This document shows, piece after piece, positions 7,564 to 29,419 of a stretch of 64,000 bases of DNA. This stretch comes from Eledone cirrhosa (lineage: Eukaryota), in contig OZ024745.1 in assembly GCA_964016885.1 (NCBI GenBank), forward strand, positions 22,196,001 to 22,260,000. The letters run 5' to 3'. How positions within the stretch are numbered: the stretch's first letter is position 1; each line of letters starts with the position of its first letter. Under the pieces are notes generated by a model that was not told the origin of the DNA, did no database searches, and saw only the letters and a program-made list of their open reading frames with translations. Both the position numbers and the translations under genes were made by a program.

Positions 7564-7587
<24 letters not shown>

Positions 7588-7595
<8 letters not shown>

Positions 7596-7782
7596 TAAAG
7601 GCTTCTACAGGACTAGAACTGTCTCATACGAAGTAAATCATGAGAAAAGCCCTGATGATTTCCTTCGTATGAAACAGTTCTAGTCCTGTAGAATCTTTTC
7701 TATATTTATTTTTTTGTATATACTCGACTTATATATGTAGTACCTTACCTACTGTAGTTAGCCACGATTGAAACAGAGACTC
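7588..7782 (+). mobile_element. Fold-back element with HHR-like arms (family F, copy 1)
   Basis: ~55-bp inverted repeat (7588-7706) containing CTGATGA..GAAACAGTTCTAGTC plus a unique tail; homologous to 17758-17948 and 18092-18272. Confidence 0.7.
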
Positions 7783-8214: not shown

Positions 8215-8603
<389 letters not shown>

Positions 8604-8643
8604 CTATATACTGGTGTTTTGGCCTTTATATATATCTGACAGT

Positions 8644-11343
8644 ATGCTAACAAAGAGCTACCTGCCTTTATCTCTGAAGAATATTCCCATCCCCTCTAGA
8701 AATACTTATGAAAAACTCTTAATTGCTAGTGTTAACTCCTTCGTAAAAAGGATTAGATGGCGTGCTTTCCACTTTGATATTAATAGGAATGGGATTGACC
8801 CCCGGGATAGGACTCGTTTCAATAACTTTGGTTTCAAGACTTATAAGAGCCCACCGCATAATGTTCTATTAGATAATTTTGAGAACGATTTACTTTCCCT
8901 TGTCAAAAATATAAAGTATAGGCCGTATAATAGATATGGGAACCATAATAAGTTCGACAGGTTCCAGTCTAAACTTAAGAATATCGTTAAGGATTTTAAA
9001 GGGAATAAGTCTATTCTTGTCCCGGCTGACAAGACTAAGAATCTTTACTCTATGGATTACAATGCTTACCGTAATTTTATCTATAAGGAGCTGCACAAAA
9101 ATTACAAAAAGACAACGCAAGATAATTTGGATCATATCAATAATGAGGGTCTCAAGATAGTTTCGGACCTGGGCCTTAATAAGTATACCCAGCCATATTA
9201 CCCTAGGGAACCGAGATTCACTCTTAAGGATCATAAGGTAGACTTCATTAGTAATCCTTCTGTTAGACTCATTAGTCCTTCTAAGTCTGATATAGCTATT
9301 ATTAGTAAGAAAATCCTTGACCTGATTATACCAGCCGTTAGGGAAAAGGTTCATTTTAATCTATGGGGGAACACTAAGGATGTTATAGATTGGTTCTCTG
9401 GTATTAATAAACTTGAGTCTAGTAGGTTTATCCAGTCTGATATTGATGCCTATTACACGTCGATTTCACCTATCCTCCTTAATAAAGCCTTAATTATGGC
9501 CATGCGAGTGTCTAGCCTTACACGACCGCAGATTGATGTTATACTAGCAGCCCGTAGGACTATCATCAAATTCGAGGATACACTTTGGACGCGTAAAAAC
9601 ACACCCAACAATTTCAACGTTACAATGGATTCGAGTGATTCAGCCCAGGTAACTGATCTTGTTGGGCTGTTCCTTCTAAATAAACTGTATGTTACCTTTC
9701 CGCACCTTAAAGGCGGACTTTATCGTGACGAAGCATTGTTTGTGATAAACTCTAGCACCAACAACATTGAGCATAATAGGAAGAAACTTTATACATTTTA
9801 AAAAAATTTTAACCTTTCGATCACGATTGATAGAAATGATAGAGCGGTCAACTTTTTAGATGTGACTTTGGACTTGATCACTAATAGTTATAAACCCTTC
9901 CATAAGCCAAATGAGATACTCTCTTATGTTAATCCCAATTCTAACCACCCCAAATCTATGATTAGCTCTATAATTAACGGTGCATCTAATAGAATTTCCA
10001 CACTCTCTAAGGATATAGGAATATTTAATTCACATGCAGAGTACTATAATAATGCCCTAGATAACTCTGGTTACTCTGGTAAAATACGTTATAATGAGAA
10101 CAACCTTAGAAAGTCTCCGTTTACCCATAATAATAATAACGTAATTTCCCATAATATGGCTATGAATGGGAGTAGAAAGCATAAGAATCGTAGAAATCCC
10201 ATAGGTGTATCCTAACCCATGCATAGATTAAGCTACCGTGATCGTAATAGTGAGTCTAATGGTACACTTTTCGGGATTAGTTCTAGGGAACAAGTTAGGC
10301 ACTGTGATCGCTCACCCAGTGGTAATGTTTTTACTAATTCTAATAGTGTTGTTTCAACTGATCCTGGTAGTAACCCTAATCCAATTGATATGATTCCCGA
10401 TAACAGTAGATATACTAAAGGTAGAAACAGAAGGAGACTCAATAGGGTTTTGGTTGCTTCTAATAATGTTGTTTCAACTAGTCCTTGTAGTAACCCTGAT
10501 CCTATTAGTGGGATACTGGATAACGGTAGAGTTCGTAAGGATAGAAATAGGAGGAGACTCAATACTTATTTTAACCCGTCTTATGATCATGAAGTATTAA
10601 CTAACATCCCTAGGTCTTTCTTTTCTATCTTAGAGAAAGATTTCCCTCCTACTAATACATACCATGGTATTTTTAATAAAAATGTAATTAAACTATCATT
10701 CTCTACCACCCCTAATATTAGTTCTCATTTAGCTAGCACTAACAATAAGAAAATTAGGGACAGCTACTCCTCTTTGCGTACTAATAGTCTTGATAGATCC
10801 ATTAATGCCTTACCACCTGAGCAGACCTTATCTTATAATAACCCTAGAAGTGATGCATCACTTATTCAGCCGGTAAATAGCACCAGGTAGTGTAACTGTA
10901 GAGTAAGTATTAACTGCCCTGTAAATGGTCACTACCTCTCTAGGAACATTGTTTATGCTTGTGAAGTTAAGACTGATTCTTCTAATATCACATATATAGG
11001 CTCCACATCAAATACTTTTAAAACTAGGGTTAATTCTCATATCTCTAATTTTAAGCATGTTAAGTTTAAGAACTCTACTTCTTTAGCACACCATATCTGG
11101 GATCTTAAAGGGGCAGGCATGCCATATAGCCTTAATTGGCGTATAGTAGCACGCTCTAATAACCTATCAACACACACTAAATTCTGTAATCTCTGTATCC
11201 TAGAGACCCACTCTATAATTTTCTCTAGGGAAGTTTTGCTTAATAGAAAGTCTGAGATATTTTCTTCCTGCCCCCATGCCATTTCTAATTCTTTCTTCTA
11301 TTATAGACCTAAAAGTTCTGGTAGTTTAAATCGTATTCATTAG
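8644..11343 (+). pseudogene. Penelope-like (Naiad) reverse transcriptase / GIY-YIG endonuclease ORF, ~899 codons, interrupted by 3 stops
   Basis: ORFs 8614, 9862, 10219 and 11119 share one frame; stops are TAA 9799, TAA 10213 and TAG 10888. Motifs: [43 protein letters not shown] (YRDD decayed), VNFLDVTLDL, SNHP, CNC..CP zinc knuckle, NIVY..YIG..FKTR..H, CNLC..E, LLNRKSE..CPH. Confidence 0.92.
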
Positions 11344-12931
11344 CTGCTATATTTCCTTATCTTTTTTGTTTAGGTTCATTTTGATTACCATCATCTTTAT
11401 TATTATTAGTTTTTTACAACTTTTCGATTTTAGTTTCCATAGTCTTTTGGCTACCATACCCTATCTATCGTCTTAAGCATTATTATAGTTTCACTACTAA
11501 CACCTTATGGGTTTATATCTTATTAAATACTTTGGTTGGAGTCTCATTCAACTAATGTACCTCCTCCTCTACACACTTAATATCCGCCCCTTCTATTATA
11601 CTATATATAAATTTCACCTTTATGCTCCTTTTATGTTATTATATAATATATTGATTTTACTTTTATGCTCCTTCCTATGCTCCATAACCTCTCTTCTTTC
11701 TGTTCCCATTGGTCTACCATAGTTCTATTTAGAGTCCTTTTATTTGATAACGTTATTCGACTGAACGGAGCATATTTTACTCTCTTCTTGATAATTTTAT
11801 TGAAATATCTCAAACTTATACGTTTTTGATGACTTAAACTATAGCCAATTTTGAAGTGACTAAATATGTATTTTAAATACTTTTAATATTAATTAATTTG
11901 AAAAGGTTTTCTAGTCAATTCGCCGCTTACATTTCTATCTCTTCTTTTACTTAACCGCTTGTGACACCTAAGTAAATATACTTGTTTTTGTTTTTCGATC
12001 TTCGGTTTATTTTATTTATTTTTTTACTACCACACGCTGTTCATTAATATATGTCTGTGTATCTCAACCGCGTAAATATTTATTAAGCATTTCCTTAGAC
12101 TCTGTTTGATATTTGATATTAATGTTGTTATATCATAACATTTTTATGTAATCGTATTATAGATTTTAATATATGTTATTTGAAGTACAGTTCTATTATA
12201 TTTTGTAATATTTTGTGATATTTTGGTAATAGTTATGCCAATGTAAAACGACTTGACCTCCGTGTATTTGTTGCAATGGTATAGATATTTTTTTCAACAC
12301 AATTTTTTCAACACTATTTAGTTCTATATGATTTTTTCTTACCCTGTGTAAAACTTTATACTATTTGTTAACCTTGAATTATATATATGATGTAATTTTG
12401 TATATCTTTTGATGCCAATATATTATAATATTGTTATTATAATGTTATTATAATGTTTTTATATTGTTTATGCACACTCACAGGGAATTATATATTATAT
12501 TTTATTTTTATTTTTATCTTTATTATATTATACTGTAAACAATATATATATATATTTAAATACTTAATAAGTGTTAGTTTGTGTTTGTACTAATGTATAT
12601 ATGTATAAATATATATATATATACATATATTAAGCTTTTTATTATCCCCATCTATTATATTATATTATATATTATATTATATTCTATATCGTACTGTAAT
12701 TCTCGCATTATATTACCATTTGTGTTTTTGCATTATATATTATTTACAATGTGGGTTCAACATGTTAATCACTTCCTTGCTATTTGGTCTATATCTATGT
12801 TTGTAACTGCTCGCTCTTAATCTTAGCCTACTTTTCCTTGATATCCTTCCTAGGCTTTAATAGATGTATACTCCATATTCTTCTGAGTTTTTGGCTTGTA
12901 TTGGCCGATAGTGCTTCTTGTAGTTTTACTT

Positions 12932-12969
12932 GCCCTGATGAGTCCTTAATAGGACGAAACATTGTTGGC
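12932..12969 (+). ncRNA. Minimal type I hammerhead ribozyme at the 3' end of the Penelope-like element
   Basis: GCC CTGATGA GTCCT-TAAT-AGGAC GAAAC-ATT-GTT GGC, followed by AATAAA at 12971. Confidence 0.75.
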
Positions 12970-13107
12970 TAATAAAGACTTTTGATGTATTGAAGGCTTC
13001 TTTGATTTATTTTTTATATTTCTTCGGCTCTGTTTAATTACATTGAGCTATATCTTATACTGTCATTTCTAGTATTTTAATTTTTCTTATATATATATAT
13101 ATATATA

Positions 13108-13472
13108 CAGAGCACCAATCCTAATTTTCAGTTTTTGCTGGACCGGCAATCGCTCTGTATAATCAGTTCCTGATTATTACTGGAATTCTATAAGAATCCA
13201 GCTTCTATAATTTTCAACAAAGGTCGGCGAGTGCTAAGCTCTGATGAACACCAACAGTGTGAAACAGAATCTGTCAGCTTATCTCCCTTCTTATCTGTCA
13301 GCTTATCTCCCTTCTCTTGTTGAAAAAAGAAGTAAGTGACATAGTCACTACTTTAAAATAATAGCGCAAGGTCTTCAAAATGTTTTTAATTAAACATACG
13401 ATATATCGCTAGATATACTATACATACATTCATGTATACATCGCTATTTCAGAGCACCAATCCTAATTTTCA
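13108..13472 (+). mobile_element. Retrozyme-like element, 320-bp family, terminally redundant monomer
   Basis: 23-bp direct repeat CAGAGCACCAATCCTAATTTTCA at both ends, (TA)n flanks, internal HHR; homologous to 16723-17745. Confidence 0.8.
13235..13281 (+). ncRNA. Type I hammerhead ribozyme with canonical core
   Basis: TAAGCT CTGATGA ACAC-CAACA-GTGT GAA ACAGA-A-TCTGT C AGCTTA; predicted cut after C13275. Confidence 0.88.
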
Positions 13473-16252: not shown

Positions 16253-16435
16253 ACGAAGGAAATGTGGTAAGGAACCAGGTGGACCATAACGCACCAAAGT
16301 ACTCAATACTTGAGGTAGTAGAGTGGGTAATAGGAACCAGTAAGACCCCGACAGCTGAGCTCAAGCCGTTTCGACGGCTCATTCAGAATTAGCCGTCGAA
16401 ACGGCTTGAGCTCAGCTGTCGGGGTCTTACTGGTT

Positions 16436-16440
<5 letters not shown>
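16253..16440 (-). mobile_element. Fold-back element carrying the 3' half of a hammerhead
   Basis: Perfect 50-bp inverted repeat 16330-16379/16391-16440 containing GAAACGGCT..AGCTGTC; (TA)n on both sides. Confidence 0.65.
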
Positions 16441-16490: not shown

Positions 16491-16710
16491 TTAATAATAA
16501 ATTTGAAGACTAAAATCCAAAGAGGGCTCGATAAGGATAAATATATATCAAATATATAAGAACCGTAGAGAAAATATTTATTAAAATAACAGATTAAAGT
16601 TTAAGCAAAGAATCGCTGCTTTCACCCTTAACGGGATCTTCTGAAGATCCCGTTAAGGGTGACAGCAGCGATTCTTTGCTTAAACTTTAATCTGTTATTT
16701 TAATAAATAT
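16487..16710 (-). mobile_element. Fold-back element with HHR-like arm
   Basis: 68-bp inverted repeat centred on T16642 with one mismatch; tail homologous to 445-568; (TA)n flanks. Confidence 0.65.
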
Positions 16711-16722
16711 ATATATATATAT

Positions 16723-17745
16723 AAAATTAGAATTGGTGCTCTGAAATAGCGATATATATATAAATGTATATACAGTGTATTTTGCAATACACTGTATGCT
16801 TAATTAAAAGCATTTCGAAGACCTTACGCTATTGTTTTAGAGTAGTGACAGTCTCATTTACTTTAAATTTTCAGCAAACAGGGGAGATAAAGCTGACAGA
16901 GCTCTGTTTCGTACTTTTTGGTACTTATCAAAGCTAAGTACTCCACCTGTTTGCTGAAAATCATGAATGTTTGATTCTTATAGGATTCTAGTAATAATCA
17001 GGAACTGATTATACAGAGCGATTGCCGCTCAAGCAGAAATTGAAAATTAGAATTGGTGCTCTGAAATAGCGATATATATATGAATGTATATATAGTGTAT
17101 TTTGCAATACACTGTATGCTTAATTAAAAGCATTTCGAAGACCTTACGCTATTGTTTTAGAGTAGTGACAGTCTCACTTACTTTAAATTTTCAGCAAACA
17201 GGGGAGATAAAGCAGACAGAGCTCTGTTTCGTACTTTTTGGTACTTATCAAAGCTAAGTACACCACTTGTTTGCTGAAAATCATGAATGTTTGATTCTTA
17301 TAGAATTCTAGTAATAATCAGGTGAGACTGCCACTACTCTAAAACAATAGCGTAAGGTCTTCGAAATGATTTTAATTAAGCATACAGTGTATTACAAAAT
17401 ACACTATATATACATTCATATATATATCGCTATTTCAGAGCACCAATTCTAATTTTCAATTTCTGCTTGACCGGCAACCGCTCTGTATAATTAGTTCCTG
17501 ATTATTACTAGAATTCTAAAAGAATCAAACATTCAGGATTTTCAGTTAACAGGTGGAGTACTTAGCTTTGATAAGTACCAAAAAGTTCGAAACAGAACTC
17601 TGTCAGCTTTATCTCCCCTGTTTGCTGAAAATTTAAAGTTAGTGAGGCTGTCACTACTCTAAAACAATAGTGTAAGGTCCTCGAAATGCTTTTAATTAAG
17701 CATACAGTGTATTGCAAAATACACTGTATATACATTTATATATAT
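16723..17745. mobile_element. Retrozyme-like element, 320-bp family: ~1.9 tandem units (minus) joined to ~1.3 inverted units (plus)
   Basis: AATTGGTGCTCTGAAATAGCG at 16731 and 17051 (period 320); orientation flips at ~17322; three HHR motifs. Confidence 0.85.
16891..16935 (-). ncRNA. Hammerhead ribozyme, U3-A8 core variant
   Basis: Minus strand: AGCT TTGATAA GTAC-CAAAAA-GTAC GAA ACAGAGCTCTGT C AGCT. Further copies at 17211-17255 (-) and 17564-17608 (+). Confidence 0.78.
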
Positions 17746-17757
17746 ATATACGTATAT

Positions 17758-17948
17758 AATATAGAAATGCTTCTACAGGGCTAGTACTGTTTCATTCGGG
17801 AGAAATCATCAGGAAGTCTACCTGATGATTTCTCCTGAATGAAACAGTTCTAGTCCTGTAGAAGCCTTTCTATATTAAGTATTTACACTCTGCTTTGTAT
17901 TGAGTCCCTTACTTACTGTCGTTACCCCCGATTGAACCGGGATAAACT
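17758..17948 (+). mobile_element. Fold-back element with HHR-like arms (family F, copy 2)
   Basis: Inverted repeat 17758-17876 around loop AAGTCTA; CTGATGA at 17822; tail shared with the other two copies. Confidence 0.72.
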
Positions 17949-18091: not shown

Positions 18092-18272
18092 GAGTCATGG
18101 GTTCAATGAAGGTTAACCACAGTAAGTAAGGAACTCAATACATTAGTAGAGTGTAAACATTATGTTAATATAGAAATGGGTTCTAAAGTCCTAGAACTGT
18201 TTCCTTCAAAAGAAATGATCAGGGATTTCCTGATGATTTATTTTGAATGAAACAGTTCTAGTACTGTAGAAG
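18092..18272 (-). mobile_element. Fold-back element with HHR-like arms (family F, copy 3)
   Basis: Same hairpin, with the tail in reverse orientation (CAGTAAGTAAGG.ACTCAATAC). Confidence 0.7.
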
Positions 18273-20303: not shown

Positions 20304-20364
20304 TTTCATTCTGATGATTGAAAGCAAAATGTGTTTGCTTTCAAGAAACCACTGGTAAATGAAA
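20304..20364 (+). ncRNA. Type I hammerhead ribozyme with 11-bp stem II, in an inverted element at 20136-20396
   Basis: TTTCATT CTGATGA TTGAAAGCAAA-ATGTG-TTTGCTTTCAA GAA ACC-ACT-GGT A AATGAAA; predicted cut after A20357. Confidence 0.88.
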
Positions 20365-20431: not shown

Positions 20432-21017
20432 GAAAAAAATGAAATTTCATTTGTCTCTCTTAGTACGGCTGATACTTAAATATAACTATGTATACGTACA
20501 TACATATATGTATACAGACGTACAGCAGTATGTATATATATATATATATACATACATGCACACATATATATATATATACGTGTGGTTTACCGAACATTTA
20601 TTATAATGTTCGGTTTGTTTGTAAACAAACAGCCCGAATTAAGCCGTACAGGTTCGGCAACCATCGTTGCCCTTTTGTTCAACACTGACAAAGGAACGAT
20701 GAACTAGTTTCAAGCTTATTAGCTATCGTCAGCACCGTATACCTTCCTGTCAGATGATTGAACGTTTGAAAGTATATACTTTCCTTGTGCATATTAACAG
20801 CTGAGCAGCCTAATTTGCATATCGTGTGAGTTAGTCGGCCGGGCGTACCGAAAACGACAAAAGGAAAAAATGAAATTTCATTTCTCACTCTTAGTACGTC
20901 TGATACTTAAATATAAGTTTGTATACGTACATACATATATGTATACAGAGGTACAGTAGTATGTATATATATACATACATGCACACATATGTACGTATGG
21001 GTTTACCGAACATTTAT
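20428..21017 (-). mobile_element. Retrozyme-like element, ~432-bp unit x ~1.35, diverged relative of the 23-29 kb array
   Basis: AAAGGAAAAAA.TGAAATTTCA at 20428 and ~20860; collinear with the reverse complement of the array unit; (TA)n flanks. Confidence 0.85.
20696..20738 (-). ncRNA. Minimal type I hammerhead ribozyme
   Basis: Minus strand: ACGGTG CTGACGA T AGCT-AATA-AGCT T GAA ACTAGT T CATCGT. Confidence 0.8.
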
Positions 21018-22903: not shown

Positions 22904-25900
22904 TTAAATGTAAGTATGCATGTATACGTACATACATATATGTATACAGACGTACAGTAGCATGCACATATATATATATACATATATATATATACATATG
23001 CATACAGGTACACATACATATATGCACGTATCAGTTTAACGAACAAAGCGACGTTATAATAAGCGCCGCTAAACTGATACGTGCATATATGTATGTGTAC
23101 CTGTATGCATATGTATATATATATGTATATATATATATATATGTGCATGCTACTGTACGTCTGTATACATATATGTATGTACGTATACATGCATACTTAC
23201 ATTTAAGTAAGTGCCATACTAAGAGTGAGAAATGAAATTTCGTTTTCATTTTGTTTCAATTTATCGTTTTCCGTATGCCTGACCGATTTAACTCACTCAA
23301 TATGCAAATTAGGCTGCTCAGCCGTTAATTTTCATAAGGAAAGTATATACTTTCGAACGTTCAACTATCTGGCAGATGGGTAAACGGTGCTGATGATAGC
23401 TAACAAGCTTGAAACTAGTACATCGTTCCTGTGTCAGTGTTGAACAAAAAGGTGACGTGGTTGCCTTAACACCGTATGGCATAAATTCAGGCTGTTCAGT
23501 TTGTTTACAAACGAACAAAGCGACGTTATAATAAGCGCCGCTAAACTGATACGTGCATATATGTATGTGTACCTGTATGCATATGTATATATATATGTAT
23601 ATATATATATATATGTGCATGCTACTGTACGTCTGTATACATATATGTATGTACGTATACATGCATACTTACATTTAAGTAAGTGCCATACTAAGAGTGA
23701 GAAATGAAATTTCGTTTTCATTTTGTTTCAATTTATCGTTTTCGGTATGCCTGACCGATTTAACTCACTCAATATGCAAATTAGGCTGCTCAGCCGTTAA
23801 TTTTCATAAGGAAAGTATATACTTTCGAACGTTCAACTATCTGGCAGATGGGTAAACGGTGCTGATGATAGCTAACAAGCTTGAAACTAGTACATCGTTC
23901 CTGTGTCAGTGTTGAACAAAAAGGTGACGTGGTTGCCTTAACACCGTATGGCATAAATTCAGGCTGTTCAGTTTGTTTACAAACGAACAAAGCGACGTTA
24001 TAATAAGCGCCGCTAAACTGATACGTGCATATATGTATGTGTACCTGTATGCATATGTATATATATATGTATATATATATATATATATATGTGCATGCTA
24101 CTGTACGTCTGTATACATATATGTATGTTCGTATACATGCATACTTACATTTAAGTAAGTGCCATACTAAGAGTGAGAAATGAAATTTCGTTTTCATTTT
24201 GTTTCAATTTATCGTTTTCGGTATGCCTGACCGATTTAACTCACTCAATATGCAAATTAGGCTGCTCAGCCGTTAATTTTCATAAGGAAAGTATATACTT
24301 TCGAACGTTCAACTATCTGGCAGATGGGTAAACGGTGCTGATGATAGCTAACAAGCTTGAAACTAGTACATCGTTCCTGTGTCAGTGTTGAACAAAAAGG
24401 TGACGTGGTTGCCTTAACACCGTATGGCATAAATTCAGGCTGTTCAGTTTGTTTACAAACGAACAAAGCGACGTTATAATAAGCGCCGCTAAACTGATAC
24501 GTGCATATATGTATGTGTACCTGTATGCATATGTATATATATATGTATATATATATATATATATATGTGCATGCTACTGTACGTCTGTATACATATATGT
24601 ATGTTCGTATACATGCATACTTACATTTAAGTAAGTGCCATACTAAGAGTGAGAAATGAAATTTCGTTTTCATTTTGTTTCAATTTATCGTTTTCGGTAT
24701 GCCTGACCGATTTAACTCACTCAATATGCAAATTAGGCTGCTCAGCCGTTAATTTTCATAAGGAAAGTATATACTTTCGAACGTTCAACTATCTGGCAGA
24801 TGGGTAAACGGTGCTGATGATAGCTAACAAGCTTGAAACTAGTACATCGTTCCTGTGTCAGTGTTGAACAAAAAGGTGACGTGGTTGCCTTAACACCGTA
24901 TGGCATAAATTCAGGCTGTTCAGTTTGTTTACAAACGAACAAAGCGACGTTATAATAAGCGCCGCTAAACTGATACGTGCATATATGTATGTGTACCTGT
25001 ATGCATATGTATATATATATATATATATATGTGCATGCTACTGTACGTCTGTATACATATATGTATGTACGTATACATGCATACTTACATTTAAGTAAGT
25101 GCCATACTAAGAGTGAGAAATGAAATTTCGTTTTCATTTTGTTTCAATTTATCGTTTTCGGTATGCCTGACCGATTTAACTCACTCAATATGCAAATTAG
25201 GCTGCTCAGCCGTTAATTTTCATAAGGAAAGTATATACTTTCGAACGTTCAACTATCTGGCAGATGGGTAAACGGTGCTGATGATAGCTAACAAGCTTGA
25301 AACTAGTACATCGTTCCTGTGTCAGTGTTGAACAAAAAGGTGACGTGGTTGCCTTAACACCGTATGGCATAAATTCAGGCTGTTCAGTTTGTTTACAAAC
25401 GAACAAAGCGACGTTATAATAAGCGCCGCTAAACTGATACGTGCATATATGTATGTGTACCTGTATGCATATGTATATATATATGTATATATATATATAT
25501 GTGTGCATGCTACTGTACGTCTGTATACATATATGTATGTACGTATACATGCATACTTACATTTAAGTAAGTGCCATACTAAGAGTGAGAAATGAAATTT
25601 CGTTTTCATTTTGTTTCAATTTATCGTTTTCGGTATGCCTGACCGATTTAACTCACTCAATATGCAAATTAGGCTGCTCAGCCGTTAATTTTCATAAGGA
25701 AAGTATATACTTTCGAACGTTCAACTATCTGGCAGATGGGTAAACGGTGCTGATGATAGCTAACAAGCTTGAAACTAGTACATCGTTCCTGTGTCAGTGT
25801 TGAACAAAAAGGTGACGTGGTTGCCTTAACACCGTATGGCATAAATTCAGGCTGTTCAGTTTGTTTACAAACGAACAAAGCGACGTTATAATAAGCGCCG

Positions 25901-28900
25901 CTAAACTGATACGTGCATATATGTATGTGTACCTGTATGCATATGTATATATATATGTATATATATATATATATATATGTGCATGCTACTGTACGTCTGT
26001 ATACATATATGTATGTTCGTATACATGCATACTTACATTTAAGTAAGTGCCATACTAAGAGTGAGAAATGAAATTTCGTTTTCATTTTGTTTCAATTTAT
26101 CGTTTTCGGTATGCCTGACCGATTTAACTCACTCAATATGCAAATTAGGCTGCTCAGCCGTTAATTTTCATAAGGAAAGTATATACTTTCGAACGTTCAA
26201 CTATCTGGCAGATGGGTAAACGGTGCTGATGATAGCTAACAAGCTTGAAACTAGTACATCGTTCCTGTGTCAGTGTTGAACAAAAAGGTGACGTGGTTGC
26301 CTTAACACCGTATGGCATAAATTCAGGCTGTTCAGTTTGTTTACAAACGAACAAAGCGACGTTATAATAAGCGCCGCTAAACTGATACGTGCATATATGT
26401 ATGTGTACCTGTATGCATATGTATATATATATGTATATATATATATATATGTGCATGCTACTGTACGTCTGTATACATATATGTATGTACGTATACATGC
26501 ATACTTACATTTAAGTAAGTGCCATACTAAGAGTGAGAAATGAAATTTCGTTTTCATTTTGTTTCAATTTATCGTTTTCCGTATGCCTGACCGATTTAAC
26601 TCACTCAATATGCAAATTAGGCTGCTCAGCCGTTAATTTTCATAAGGAAAGTATATACTTTCGAACGTTCAACTATCTGGCAGATGGGTAAACGGTGCTG
26701 ATGATAGCTAACAAGCTTGAAACTAGTACATCGTTCCTGTGTCAGTGTTGAACAAAAAGGTGACGTGGTTGCCTTAACACCGTATGGCATAAATTCAGGC
26801 TGTTCAGTTTGTTTACAAACGAACAAAGCGACGTTATAATAAGCGCCGCTAAACTGATACGTGCATATATGTATGTGTACCTGTATGCATATGTATATAT
26901 ATATGTATATATATATATATATGTGCATGCTACTGTACGTCTGTATACATATATGTATGTACGTATACATGCATACTTACATTTAAGTAAGTGCCATACT
27001 AAGAGTGAGAAATGAAATTTCGTTTTCATTTTGTTTCAATTTATCGTTTTCGGTATGCCTGACCGATTTAACTCACTCAATATGCAAATTAGGCTGCTCA
27101 GCCGTTAATTTTCATAAGGAAAGTATATACTTTCGAACGTTCAACTATCTGGCAGATGGGTAAACGGTGCTGATGATATTTAACAAGCTTGAAACTAGTA
27201 CATCGTTCCTGTGTCAGTGTTGAACAAAAAGGTGACGTGGTTGCCTTAACACCGTATGGCATAAATTCAGGCTGTTCAGTTTGTTTACAAACGAACAAAG
27301 CGACGTTATAATAAGCGCCGCTAAACTGATACGTGCATATATGTATGTGTACCTGTATGCATATGTATATATATATGTATATATATATATATATATATAT
27401 GTGCATGCTACTGTACGTCTGTATACATATATGTATGTTCGTATACATGCATACTTACATTTAAGTAAGTGCCATACTAAGAGTGAGAAATGAAATTTCG
27501 TTTTCATTTTGTTTCAATTTATCGTTTTCGGTATGCCTGACCGACTTAACTCACTCAATATGCAAATTAGGCTGCTCAGCCGTTAATTTTCATAAGGAAA
27601 GTATATACTTTCGAACGTTCAACTATCTGGCAGATGGGTAAACGGTGCTGATGATAGCTAACAAGCTTGAAACTAGTACATCGTTCCTGTGTCAGTGTTG
27701 AACAAAAAGGTGACGTGGTTGCCTTAACACCGTATGGCATAAATTCAGGCTGTTCAGTTTGTTTACAAACGAACAAAGCGACGTTATAATAAGCGCCGCT
27801 AAACTGATACGTGCATATATGTATGTGTACCTGTATGCATATGTATATATATATGTATATATATATATATATGTGCATGCTACTGTACGTCTGTATACAT
27901 ATATGTATGTACGTATACATGCATACTTACATTTAAGTAAGTGCCATACTAAGAGTGAGAAATGAAATTTCGTTTTCATTTTGTTTCAATTTATCGTTTT
28001 CCGTATGCCTGACCGATTTAACTCACTCAATATGCAAATTAGGCTGCTCAGCCGTTAATTTTCATAAGGAAAGTATATACTTTCGAACGTTCAACTATCT
28101 GGCAGATGGGTAAACGGTGCTGATGATAGCTAACAAGCTTGAAACTAGTACATCGTTCCTGTGTCAGTGTTGAACAAAAAGGTGACGTGGTTGCCTTAAC
28201 ACCGTATGGCATAAATTCAGGCTGTTCAGTTTGTTTACAAACGAACAAAGCGACGTTATAATAAGCGCCGCTAAACTGATACGTGCATATATGTATGTGT
28301 ACCTGTATGCATATGTATATATATATGTATATATATATATATATGTGCATGCTACTGTACGTCTGTATACATATATGTATGTACGTATACATGCATACTT
28401 ACATTTAAGTAAGTGCCATACTAAGAGTGAGAAATGAAATTTCGTTTTCATTTTGTTTCAATTTATCGTTTTCGGTATGCCTGACCGATTTAACTCACTC
28501 AATATGCAAATTAGGCTGCTCAGCCGTTAATTTTCATAAGGAAAGTATATACTTTCGAACGTTCAACTATCTGGCAGATGGGTAAACGGTGCTGATGATA
28601 GCTAACAAGCTTGAAACTAGTACATCGTTCCTGTGTCAGTGTTGAACAAAAAGGTGACGTGGTTGCCTTAACACCGTATGGCATAAATTTAGGCTGTTCA
28701 GTTTGTTTACAAACGAACAAAGCGACGTTATAATAAGCGCCGCTAAACTGATACGTGCATATATGTATGTGTACCTGTATGCATATGTATATATATATGT
28801 ATATATATATATATATATGTGCATGCTACTGTACGTCTGTATACATATATGTATGTACGTATACATGCATACTTACATTTAAGTAAGTGCCATACTAAGA

Positions 28901-29412
28901 GTGAGAAATGAAATTTCGTTTTCATTTTGTTTCAATTTATCGTTTTCGGTATGCCTGACCGATTTAACTCACTCAATATGCAAATTAGGCTGCTCAGCCG
29001 TTAATTTTCATAAGGAAAGTATATACTTTCGAACGTTCAACTATCTGGCAGATGGGTAAACGGTGCTGATGATAGCTAACAAGCTTGAAACTAGTACATC
29101 GTTCCTGTGTCAGTGTTGAACAAAAAGGTGACGTGGTTGCCTTAACACCGTATGGCATAAATTCAGGCTGTTCAGTTTGTTTACAAACGAACAAAGCGAC
29201 GTTATAATAAGCGCCGCTAAACTGATACGTGCATATATGTATGTGTACCTGTATGCATATGTATATATATATGTATATATATATATATATATGTGCATGC
29301 TACTGTACGTCTGTATACATATATGTATGTACGTATACATGCATACTTACATTTAAGTAAGTGCCATACTAAGAGTGAGAAATGAAATTTCGTTTTCATT
29401 TTGTTTCAATTT
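22904..29412 (+). mobile_element. Tandem array of ~13.5 x 464-478-bp hammerhead-containing units (retrozyme-like), with an inverted 5' segment
   Basis: Near-identical units whose length differs only in an internal (TA)n; 22904-23038 is the reverse complement of 23070-23206; (TA)n on both flanks. Confidence 0.92.
23383..23427 (+). ncRNA. Minimal type I hammerhead ribozyme, first of 13
   Basis: AACGGTG CTGATGA T AGCT-AACA-AGCT T GAA ACTAGT A CATCGTT. Other copies start at 23855, 24331, 24807, 25271, 25743, 26219, 26691, 27163, 27641, 28113, 28585 and 29059. Confidence 0.85.
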
Positions 29413-29419
29413 ATATATA

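Follow-up and report, generated by a model that had tools for sequence, protein, structure and literature searches.

The pair formed by positions 3 and 8 of the hammerhead ribozyme is given in PMC3884650, and natural cores with U3-A8 at these positions were presented by Perreault et al. 2011 (PMC3088659), where earlier in vitro activity is noted and the legend of Fig. S8 describes a palindromic helix/loop III in repeat-type hammerheads. About 1,300 U3-A8 motifs were found by Cervera and De la Pena 2014 (PMC4209133) in Penelope-type elements of Schistosoma after having been missed by their own first descriptor, and the minimal Penelope hammerheads treated there have low in vitro activity. Non-LTR retrozymes were defined by Cervera and De la Pena 2020 (PMC7229834), with repeats of 150-450 bp that yield circular RNA in coral and mussel. 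A preprint by Li et al. 2026 (10.64898/2026.07.22.740005) calls a retrozyme 'active' when two consecutive units carry complete hammerheads. Inverted 5'-truncated copies and a bias for (TA)n are described as traits of Penelope-like elements (PMC8557442), and in the one in vitro system insertion did not depend on cleavage (PMC11167929). Both the U3-A8 core and the palindromic helix III are already published for this kind of element.

Here we analysed a stretch of 64,000 nucleotides from Eledone cirrhosa (contig OZ024745.1), called the window throughout, which contains a non-coding repeat of about 320 bp with a U3-A8 hammerhead. This repeat is probably a non-autonomous retrozyme that is mobilised by a Penelope-like element and is predicted to cut itself, likely as a pair. 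In a transcript of at least two units, the palindromic helices III of two hammerheads would pair over 12 bp, and each hammerhead would cut after GUC, thereby releasing a 320-nt monomer that may circularise. A Penelope-like RT/GIY-YIG protein would then reverse-transcribe the monomer and insert it into (TA)n. The change from C3-G8 to U3-A8 would have arisen once in a source element and would have been retained since cutting requires the 3-8 pair; copies would then decay after insertion, as 17251 and 17568 appear to have done. Cleavage and expression of the 320-bp element, as well as its mobilising partner, are what we infer from these features. The repeat brings no new chemistry and no new kind of element; it is an ordinary but well-supported example. 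The one new lead is computational, namely that U3 halves the strength of a predicted self-inhibiting fold.

The 320-bp repeat and its hammerheads

The features of the repeat and its surroundings are collected in Table 1. In the compound insertion the minus strand holds 1.9 units in tandem (17322 to 16723; period 320, 97% alike), and these stand head-to-head with roughly 1.3 plus-strand units (17323-17747), giving inverted arms of 426 nt (96%). No ORF of at least 100 aa was found over 16723-17747. The 2-kb bin around the insertion has 33% GC in a window of low-GC, microsatellite-rich DNA. The folded 320-nt unit reached z = -7.1, with none of 100 shuffles as stable. The diverged sister monomer carries a 23-nt terminal redundancy and an internal 24-nt duplication (13269-13315). 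This tandem duplication extends across the site at which the 13241 hammerhead is predicted to cut, and it supplies helices III and I with another 3' strand.

Table 1. Positions, strands and supporting evidence of the features in the window
Feature	Position	Strand	Details and evidence
Compound insertion of the ~320-bp repeat, (TA)n tracts on either side	16723..17747	.	period 320, inverted arms
Intact U3-A8 type I hammerhead	16891..16935	-	direct reading, descriptor, HH9 E 0.0024
U3 of this motif	16931	-	
A8 of this motif	16926	-	
Stem II of this motif	16924-16911	-	
G12-A14 of this motif	16910-16908	-	
Palindromic helix III of this motif	16907-16896	-	
Predicted cut of this motif	16895	-	after C17
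Second U3-A8 hammerhead	17211..17255	-	U3 17251; 320 nt upstream, same transcript as 16931
Third U3-A8 hammerhead	17564..17608	+	U3 17568, A8 17573; inverted arm
Predicted helix I extension	16866..16962	-	~21 bp past an internal loop, hammerhead on its tip; folding
Diverged sister monomer (84-85%)	13108..13472	+	C3-G8 core at 13241-13247; between (TA)n tracts
Decayed Penelope-like element	8587..13090 (3' end approximate)	+	own canonical hammerhead at 12935 in 3' region; ORF, GIY-YIG match

Read directly, the plus-strand copy at 13241 is C3-G8, with CTGATGA, stem II ACAC/GTGT and helix III ACAGA-A-TCTGT in the layout AGCT-CTGATGA-ACAC-loop-GTGT-GAA-ACAGAATCTGT-C-AGCT. The minus-strand copy at 16931 reads AGCT-TTGATAA-GTAC-loop-GTAC-GAA-ACAGAGCTCTGT-C-AGCT, and it shares TTGATAA and the stem II 5' arm GTAC with 17251(-) and 17568(+), hence all three are U3-A8. 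The opposition of CTGATGA at 13241 to TTGATAA in three homologues, which a previous sequence-only reading had pointed out, was therefore borne out. The same reading saw stem II as ACAC/GTGT against GTAC/GTAC and stem III as a loopless palindrome. Both statements hold for two of the three U3-A8 copies, the palindrome being ACAGAGCTCTGT, and fail for 17568, which has GTAC/GTTC in stem II and ACAGAACTCTGT in helix III.

Only the 16931 motif is intact. Its core fits the type I hammerhead, with UUGAUAA, GAA, A15.1-U16.1, C17 and a Watson-Crick 3-8 pair that is U-A, and its three helices, of which helix I is open, are backed by the covariation described below. The 17251 and 16931 motifs belong to consecutive units, but in 17251 the change of A1.1 to U has removed the first pair of helix I (1.1-2.1); in 17568 a single stem II mismatch accompanies the broken palindrome. 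A strict descriptor search matched two of the three U3-A8 copies, and one is missed because of the damage in 17251 (pair 1.1-2.1) and 17568 (stem II, palindrome). All three copies were matched by the Rfam model Hammerhead_HH9 with E values of 0.0024, 0.022 and 0.048, while their scores of 24.5, 21.5 and 20.5 bits stay below the gathering score of 52. HH9 is a model of a different subfamily, and the sub-threshold score lowers membership of that Rfam family only. The claim that CUGANGA searches miss the subfamily proved right, as a strict descriptor of this kind misses U3-A8 cores here and likewise in PMC4209133. Strict CUGANGA searches thus undercount animal hammerheads, since one high-copy subfamily lies outside them and also below the Rfam thresholds. 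Rfam matches over the whole window (150 of 259 listed) were mostly microRNA models on microsatellites and were rejected as low-complexity. A search with a family pattern in which positions 3 and 8 were unconstrained gave no loci in viral contigs; its eight metagenome loci were rejected as chance matches, none having the flanks of the 320-bp unit.

The decayed Penelope-like element next to the sister monomer has an ORF (8587-11343) with three in-frame stops as well as a GIY-YIG match at the C terminus (E 6e-4), below the curated cut-off. RWR, DKT, CxCX5C, CxxC and CxH motifs as well as (TA)n flanks were recognised by eye, and such motifs and flanks are described for the Hydra clade in PMC8557442, there with RWK where the element here has RWR. 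The reverse transcriptase part gave no Pfam match and no meaningful match to solved structures. A 120-bp internal duplication lies at 10338-10564. The sister monomer follows this element after a (TA)n tract and has no sequence in common with it. The element was rejected as a proven partner, as BLAST found no similarity between it and the 320-bp unit; it shows only that Penelope-like elements exist in this genome, and no autonomous partner of the unit was identified.

Several other repeats of the window carry hammerhead-like motifs. A second and younger family that resembles retrozymes forms a tandem array of 13.5 copies of a 472-bp unit (23038-29414; 98% alike, with an internal microsatellite). 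Each unit has one canonical type I hammerhead with CUGAUGA, and 12 of these matched the descriptor; at 20613-20875 there is a diverged inverted copy. The descriptor was also matched at 20311, where a CTGATGA...GAAA motif has a helix I of 7 bp and a long stem II. Three other repeat families form short palindromes with their arms head-to-head, mostly beside (TA)n, at 16334-16440, 16574-16710, 17757-17877, 18165-18272 and 7579-7714. Most of their arms begin with a CTGANGA-like box, or a few bases ahead of it, and a stem and GAAA come next; it looks as though inverted 5' truncation tended to fall at the hammerhead core. In the sequencing runs described below, opposite-strand joints of the 320-bp unit occur at six different places (X1, X8), which suggests that inversion is common in the family. 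The second half of the window is strongly C-skewed and trinucleotide-rich, with a 34-bp minisatellite of 277 copies at 47379-56782.

The 3-8 swap in the window and in the family

Between the 13241 and 16931 hammerheads, three of 14 pairs (3-8, 10.1-11.1 and 10.2-11.2) differ in both of their bases, and no pair differs in just one. Against a background of 36 transitions among 46 changes at 313 sites, at least three double transitions have a probability of about 0.0008, and for one-sided changes the observed zero compares with 3.5 expected (P ~0.02), both values having been computed post hoc. Taken by itself, the 3-8 swap has a post hoc P of ~0.013-0.018. The three U3-A8 copies are 94.0-97.5% identical, compared with 83.6-85.3% between them and 13241, and they lie in one insertion; therefore the swap in the window counts as a single event, and indeed the 3-8 swap is one historical event. 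CpG decay was rejected as its cause, since in 13241 C3 is followed by T and G8 is preceded by T.

For the survey of the family, four of the ten listed sequencing runs (X1, X4, X7 and X8) were aligned to 16790-17040 with a likeness floor of 80%. Matches were obtained with 2,482 contigs of X1, 4,211 reads of X8, 37 contigs of X4, which has another organism code, and two contigs of X7, both short and neither over the hammerhead; X7 does not enter the frequencies below. The 320-bp family is dispersed and high-copy, the contig and read numbers of X1 and X8 being no exact copy number. Copies of the 13241 type, 74-76% identical over the hammerhead region, fall below the floor, hence the run data are silent on the abundance of the C3-G8 sister.

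Variant sites were evaluated among the 40 of 97 that were listed, and places were also counted by kind of change. In X1 the listed places at 3% or more are complete for both transitions (5 of 5 A>G, 4 of 4 T>C) and include neither 16931 nor 16926; therefore C3 and G8 each make up less than 3% of depth on the U3-A8 background. All five A>G places of X4 are listed as well, none of them 16931, which limits C3 as in X1, while the six of eight listed T>C places limit G8 only to about 14%. Of the X8 places, six of the 10 with A>G are listed and six of the 15 with T>C, and the bound on C3 and G8 is about 14%; both of these wider bounds assume that sites are ranked by share. Contigs (X1, X4) lose rare variants, and the read ends of X8 cluster at restriction-like sites, so that its counts are biased by library design. 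The U3-A8 pair is the dominant state of this subfamily. 

Among the same 40 of 97 listed sites, those within 16866-16962 number six among the 16 unpaired positions and nine among the 68 paired ones, with none among the 13 of the core; the difference between core and unpaired sites has a Fisher p of 0.02, while the invariant core compared with all flanking sites (36 of 223 variable) gives a non-significant P of 0.10. Loops vary at 13-43% in X8, and the core has no listed variant. The helix I extension contains two listed variant sites, one a wobble and one at its end; an internal loop is predicted in helix I, and loops 1 and 2, the candidates for a tertiary contact, are both variable in the family data. 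Among the nine variable paired sites, six form three compensating pairs, two are G-U wobbles and one breaks the last pair of the long stem. Within each compensating pair the frequencies agree in both runs:

pair 11.2/10.2 with 356/1424 and 351/1299 in X8 (25.0 and 27.0%) and 11.8 and 13.1% in X1; pair 11.4/10.4 with 195/1297 and 188/1301 in X8 (15.0 and 14.5%) and 1.1 and 1.1% in X1; and the helix III pair 16903/16900 with 160/1395 and 170/1422 in X8 (11.5 and 12.0%) and 1.7 and 1.7% in X1. These matching, unphased frequencies point to linkage inside each pair. All three pairs may go back to one or two subfamily founders. Stem covariation could also be obtained by hairpin-templated repair, which cannot couple positions 3 and 8. 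The sequence-only reading had taken the double change as an argument for selection on catalysis. What stands of this is a real, high-copy subfamily and not local decay, given the low shares of C3 and G8 in X1 and the compensating stem pairs; the three copies are not independent and testify to one event.

Dimer, monomer and other readings

Regarding the mode of cutting, the analysis favours use of the hammerhead as a dimer. The 12-bp duplex of two palindromes has a predicted energy of -20.1 kcal/mol, compared with -1.8 kcal/mol for the helix III that a monomer can form, 4 bp capped by the 4-nt loop AGCU. Because this short helix is possible, the palindrome by itself is no proof of dimer use. 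The argument comes from two other observations. The compensated helix III pair 16903/16900 encloses just 2 nt, therefore it forms only between two copies. Moreover, the natural tandem has a free minimum of -165.0 kcal/mol, from which the dimer form (-164.3) is only 0.7 kcal/mol away, while two monomers (-154.2) lie 10.8 kcal/mol above it. Dimeric cleavage, to which the loopless palindrome had been taken to point, is in this way favoured, with the reservation that the short monomer helix can form. Lunse et al. reportedly dealt with dimeric Penelope hammerheads.

It is rather unlikely that the same element cuts as a monomer, with the 4-bp helix III and its AGCU loop assisted by the long helix I and the palindrome being incidental. 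Such a hairpin is allowed, single cloned retrozyme repeats of coral and mussel self-cleaved (PMC7229834), and the palindrome of 13241 is odd-length and imperfect; yet about 12% of X8 reads preserve the dimer-only pair through a double change, and in the tandem two monomers are placed 10 kcal/mol above the dimer form. The helix III variant itself brings the predicted gap to the hammerhead-like fold down to 0, which speaks for the monomer. A different origin of the unit is also unlikely, namely that it is the pseudo-LTR of a not-yet-found autonomous Penelope-like element, whose copies would be 5'-truncated, inverted insertion remnants and not an independent retrozyme. Head-to-tail repeats with a closed 320-nt period and a 13241 monomer with 23-nt terminal redundancy speak against remnants of this kind, as does a unit that has neither an adjoining ORF nor similarity to the 3' region of the neighbouring element. 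Inverted truncated arms and (TA)n targets are nevertheless typical of Penelope-like insertions (PMC8557442), and the preprint 10.64898/2026.07.22.740005 derives retrozymes from pseudo-LTRs.

Finally, it is quite unlikely that the U3-A8 subfamily owes its spread to hitchhiking and carries a hammerhead that is dead or weakly active; the 3-8 double change would then go back to chance transitions in a founder and the stem covariation to template switching on DNA hairpins. Stems II and III are short inverted repeats, and such repeats are open to palindrome correction; however, positions 3 and 8 form no DNA hairpin, so repair cannot couple them. Both 3-8 changes are transitions, as are most changes of the lineage, and the swap is a single event with the post hoc P given above. 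The core stands out less clearly from all flanks than from the loops, where the lack of any core variant among the listed sites contrasts with the loop variation in X8. Insertion proceeded without cleavage in vitro (PMC11167929), but the same swap recurs in phages (PMC3088659) and Schistosoma (PMC4209133).

The preferred reading, a retrozyme that cuts as a pair, leaves room for a further role of U3. In the best monomer fold, which is 2.9 kcal/mol lower than the hammerhead-like one, the palindrome pairs with U3-U4-G5 and the arm of helix I; the hammerhead-like fold makes up less than 1% of the predicted monomer ensemble. Putting C3-G8 into the 16931 context in silico widens this gap from 2.9 to 5.6 kcal/mol. 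The natural 13241 hammerhead has a gap of 2.8 kcal/mol, changed to 2.2 by in-silico U3-A8. In combination with the helix III variant, U3-A8 has a gap of 0.0 and C3-G8 one of 2.1; all these gaps are nearest-neighbour energies that ignore tertiary contacts and Mg2+. Hence, it might be conceived, as an improbable option suggested by the models, that the U3-A8 swap belongs to a switch that is off in the monomer and on in the dimer, and that core swap and palindrome co-evolved to tune it. The helix III palindrome would be complementary to the helix I arm and to core bases 3-5, a lone hammerhead would rest in the inhibited fold until opened by a partner copy, and U3 would turn a C-G pair of the inhibitory helix into a wobble, thereby halving the predicted inhibitory strength. 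The gap of the U3-A8 subfamily (2.9) matches that of its natural C3-G8 sister (2.8), whose palindrome is imperfect. If such a switch exists, C3-G8 should not occur together with a perfect AGCU-centred palindrome, and the family would hold a natural record, in a thousand copies, of how a folding switch and a catalytic core pair interact epistatically. A literature search, mainly of open-access main texts, returned no account of a coupling between core pair and palindrome, which is weak evidence of absence.

Comparison with described hammerheads

The same search, again mainly of open-access main texts and again weak as evidence of absence, did not find this particular 320-bp family, and the comparisons below refer to the available text of each source. 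In several respects the motif resembles the hammerheads of the Schistosoma mansoni Cercyon elements (PMC4209133). Both are type I motifs in an animal retroelement-related repeat, with U3-A8 beside C3-G8 families, both are missed by the standard descriptor, and both have nearby copies on opposite strands and are dimer-compatible. They differ in stem II, which has 4 bp and no extra base after A9 here and 7-8 bp with a bulge in Cercyon, and in helix III, a full 12-nt palindrome here that is absent in the Cercyon hammerheads; moreover, the motif here belongs to a 320-bp unit repeated in tandem and is carried by a long helix I, unlike in Cercyon. The strict description of a minimal Penelope hammerhead (helix III absent or minimal, stem II of 7-8 bp, an extra base after A9) does not apply to it.

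Several of the retrozyme features are present in the repeat: it is a high-copy, non-coding tandem unit within 150-450 bp and of low GC, strongly self-paired and with one type I hammerhead per unit. It agrees in this with the metazoan non-LTR retrozymes (PMC7229834; 10.64898/2026.07.22.740005), as also in the occurrence of monomers and short multimers and of Penelope-like elements in the same genome. The U3-A8 core sets it apart, as none was found in the available text of the metazoan retrozyme accounts, and in our case circular RNA and cleavage are predictions. With the repeat-type hammerheads (PMC3088659) it shares a palindromic helix III that is fully paired in the dimer and U3-A8 as a natural compensating swap. 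Unlike in those cases, as far as they are described there, both features occur in one family here, with frequencies at the family level and a compensated dimer-only pair. For the question, left open in the literature, whether the hammerheads of retroelements are selected for cutting and dimer gating, the natural C3-G8/U3-A8 sister pair and this compensated pair are both handy test material.
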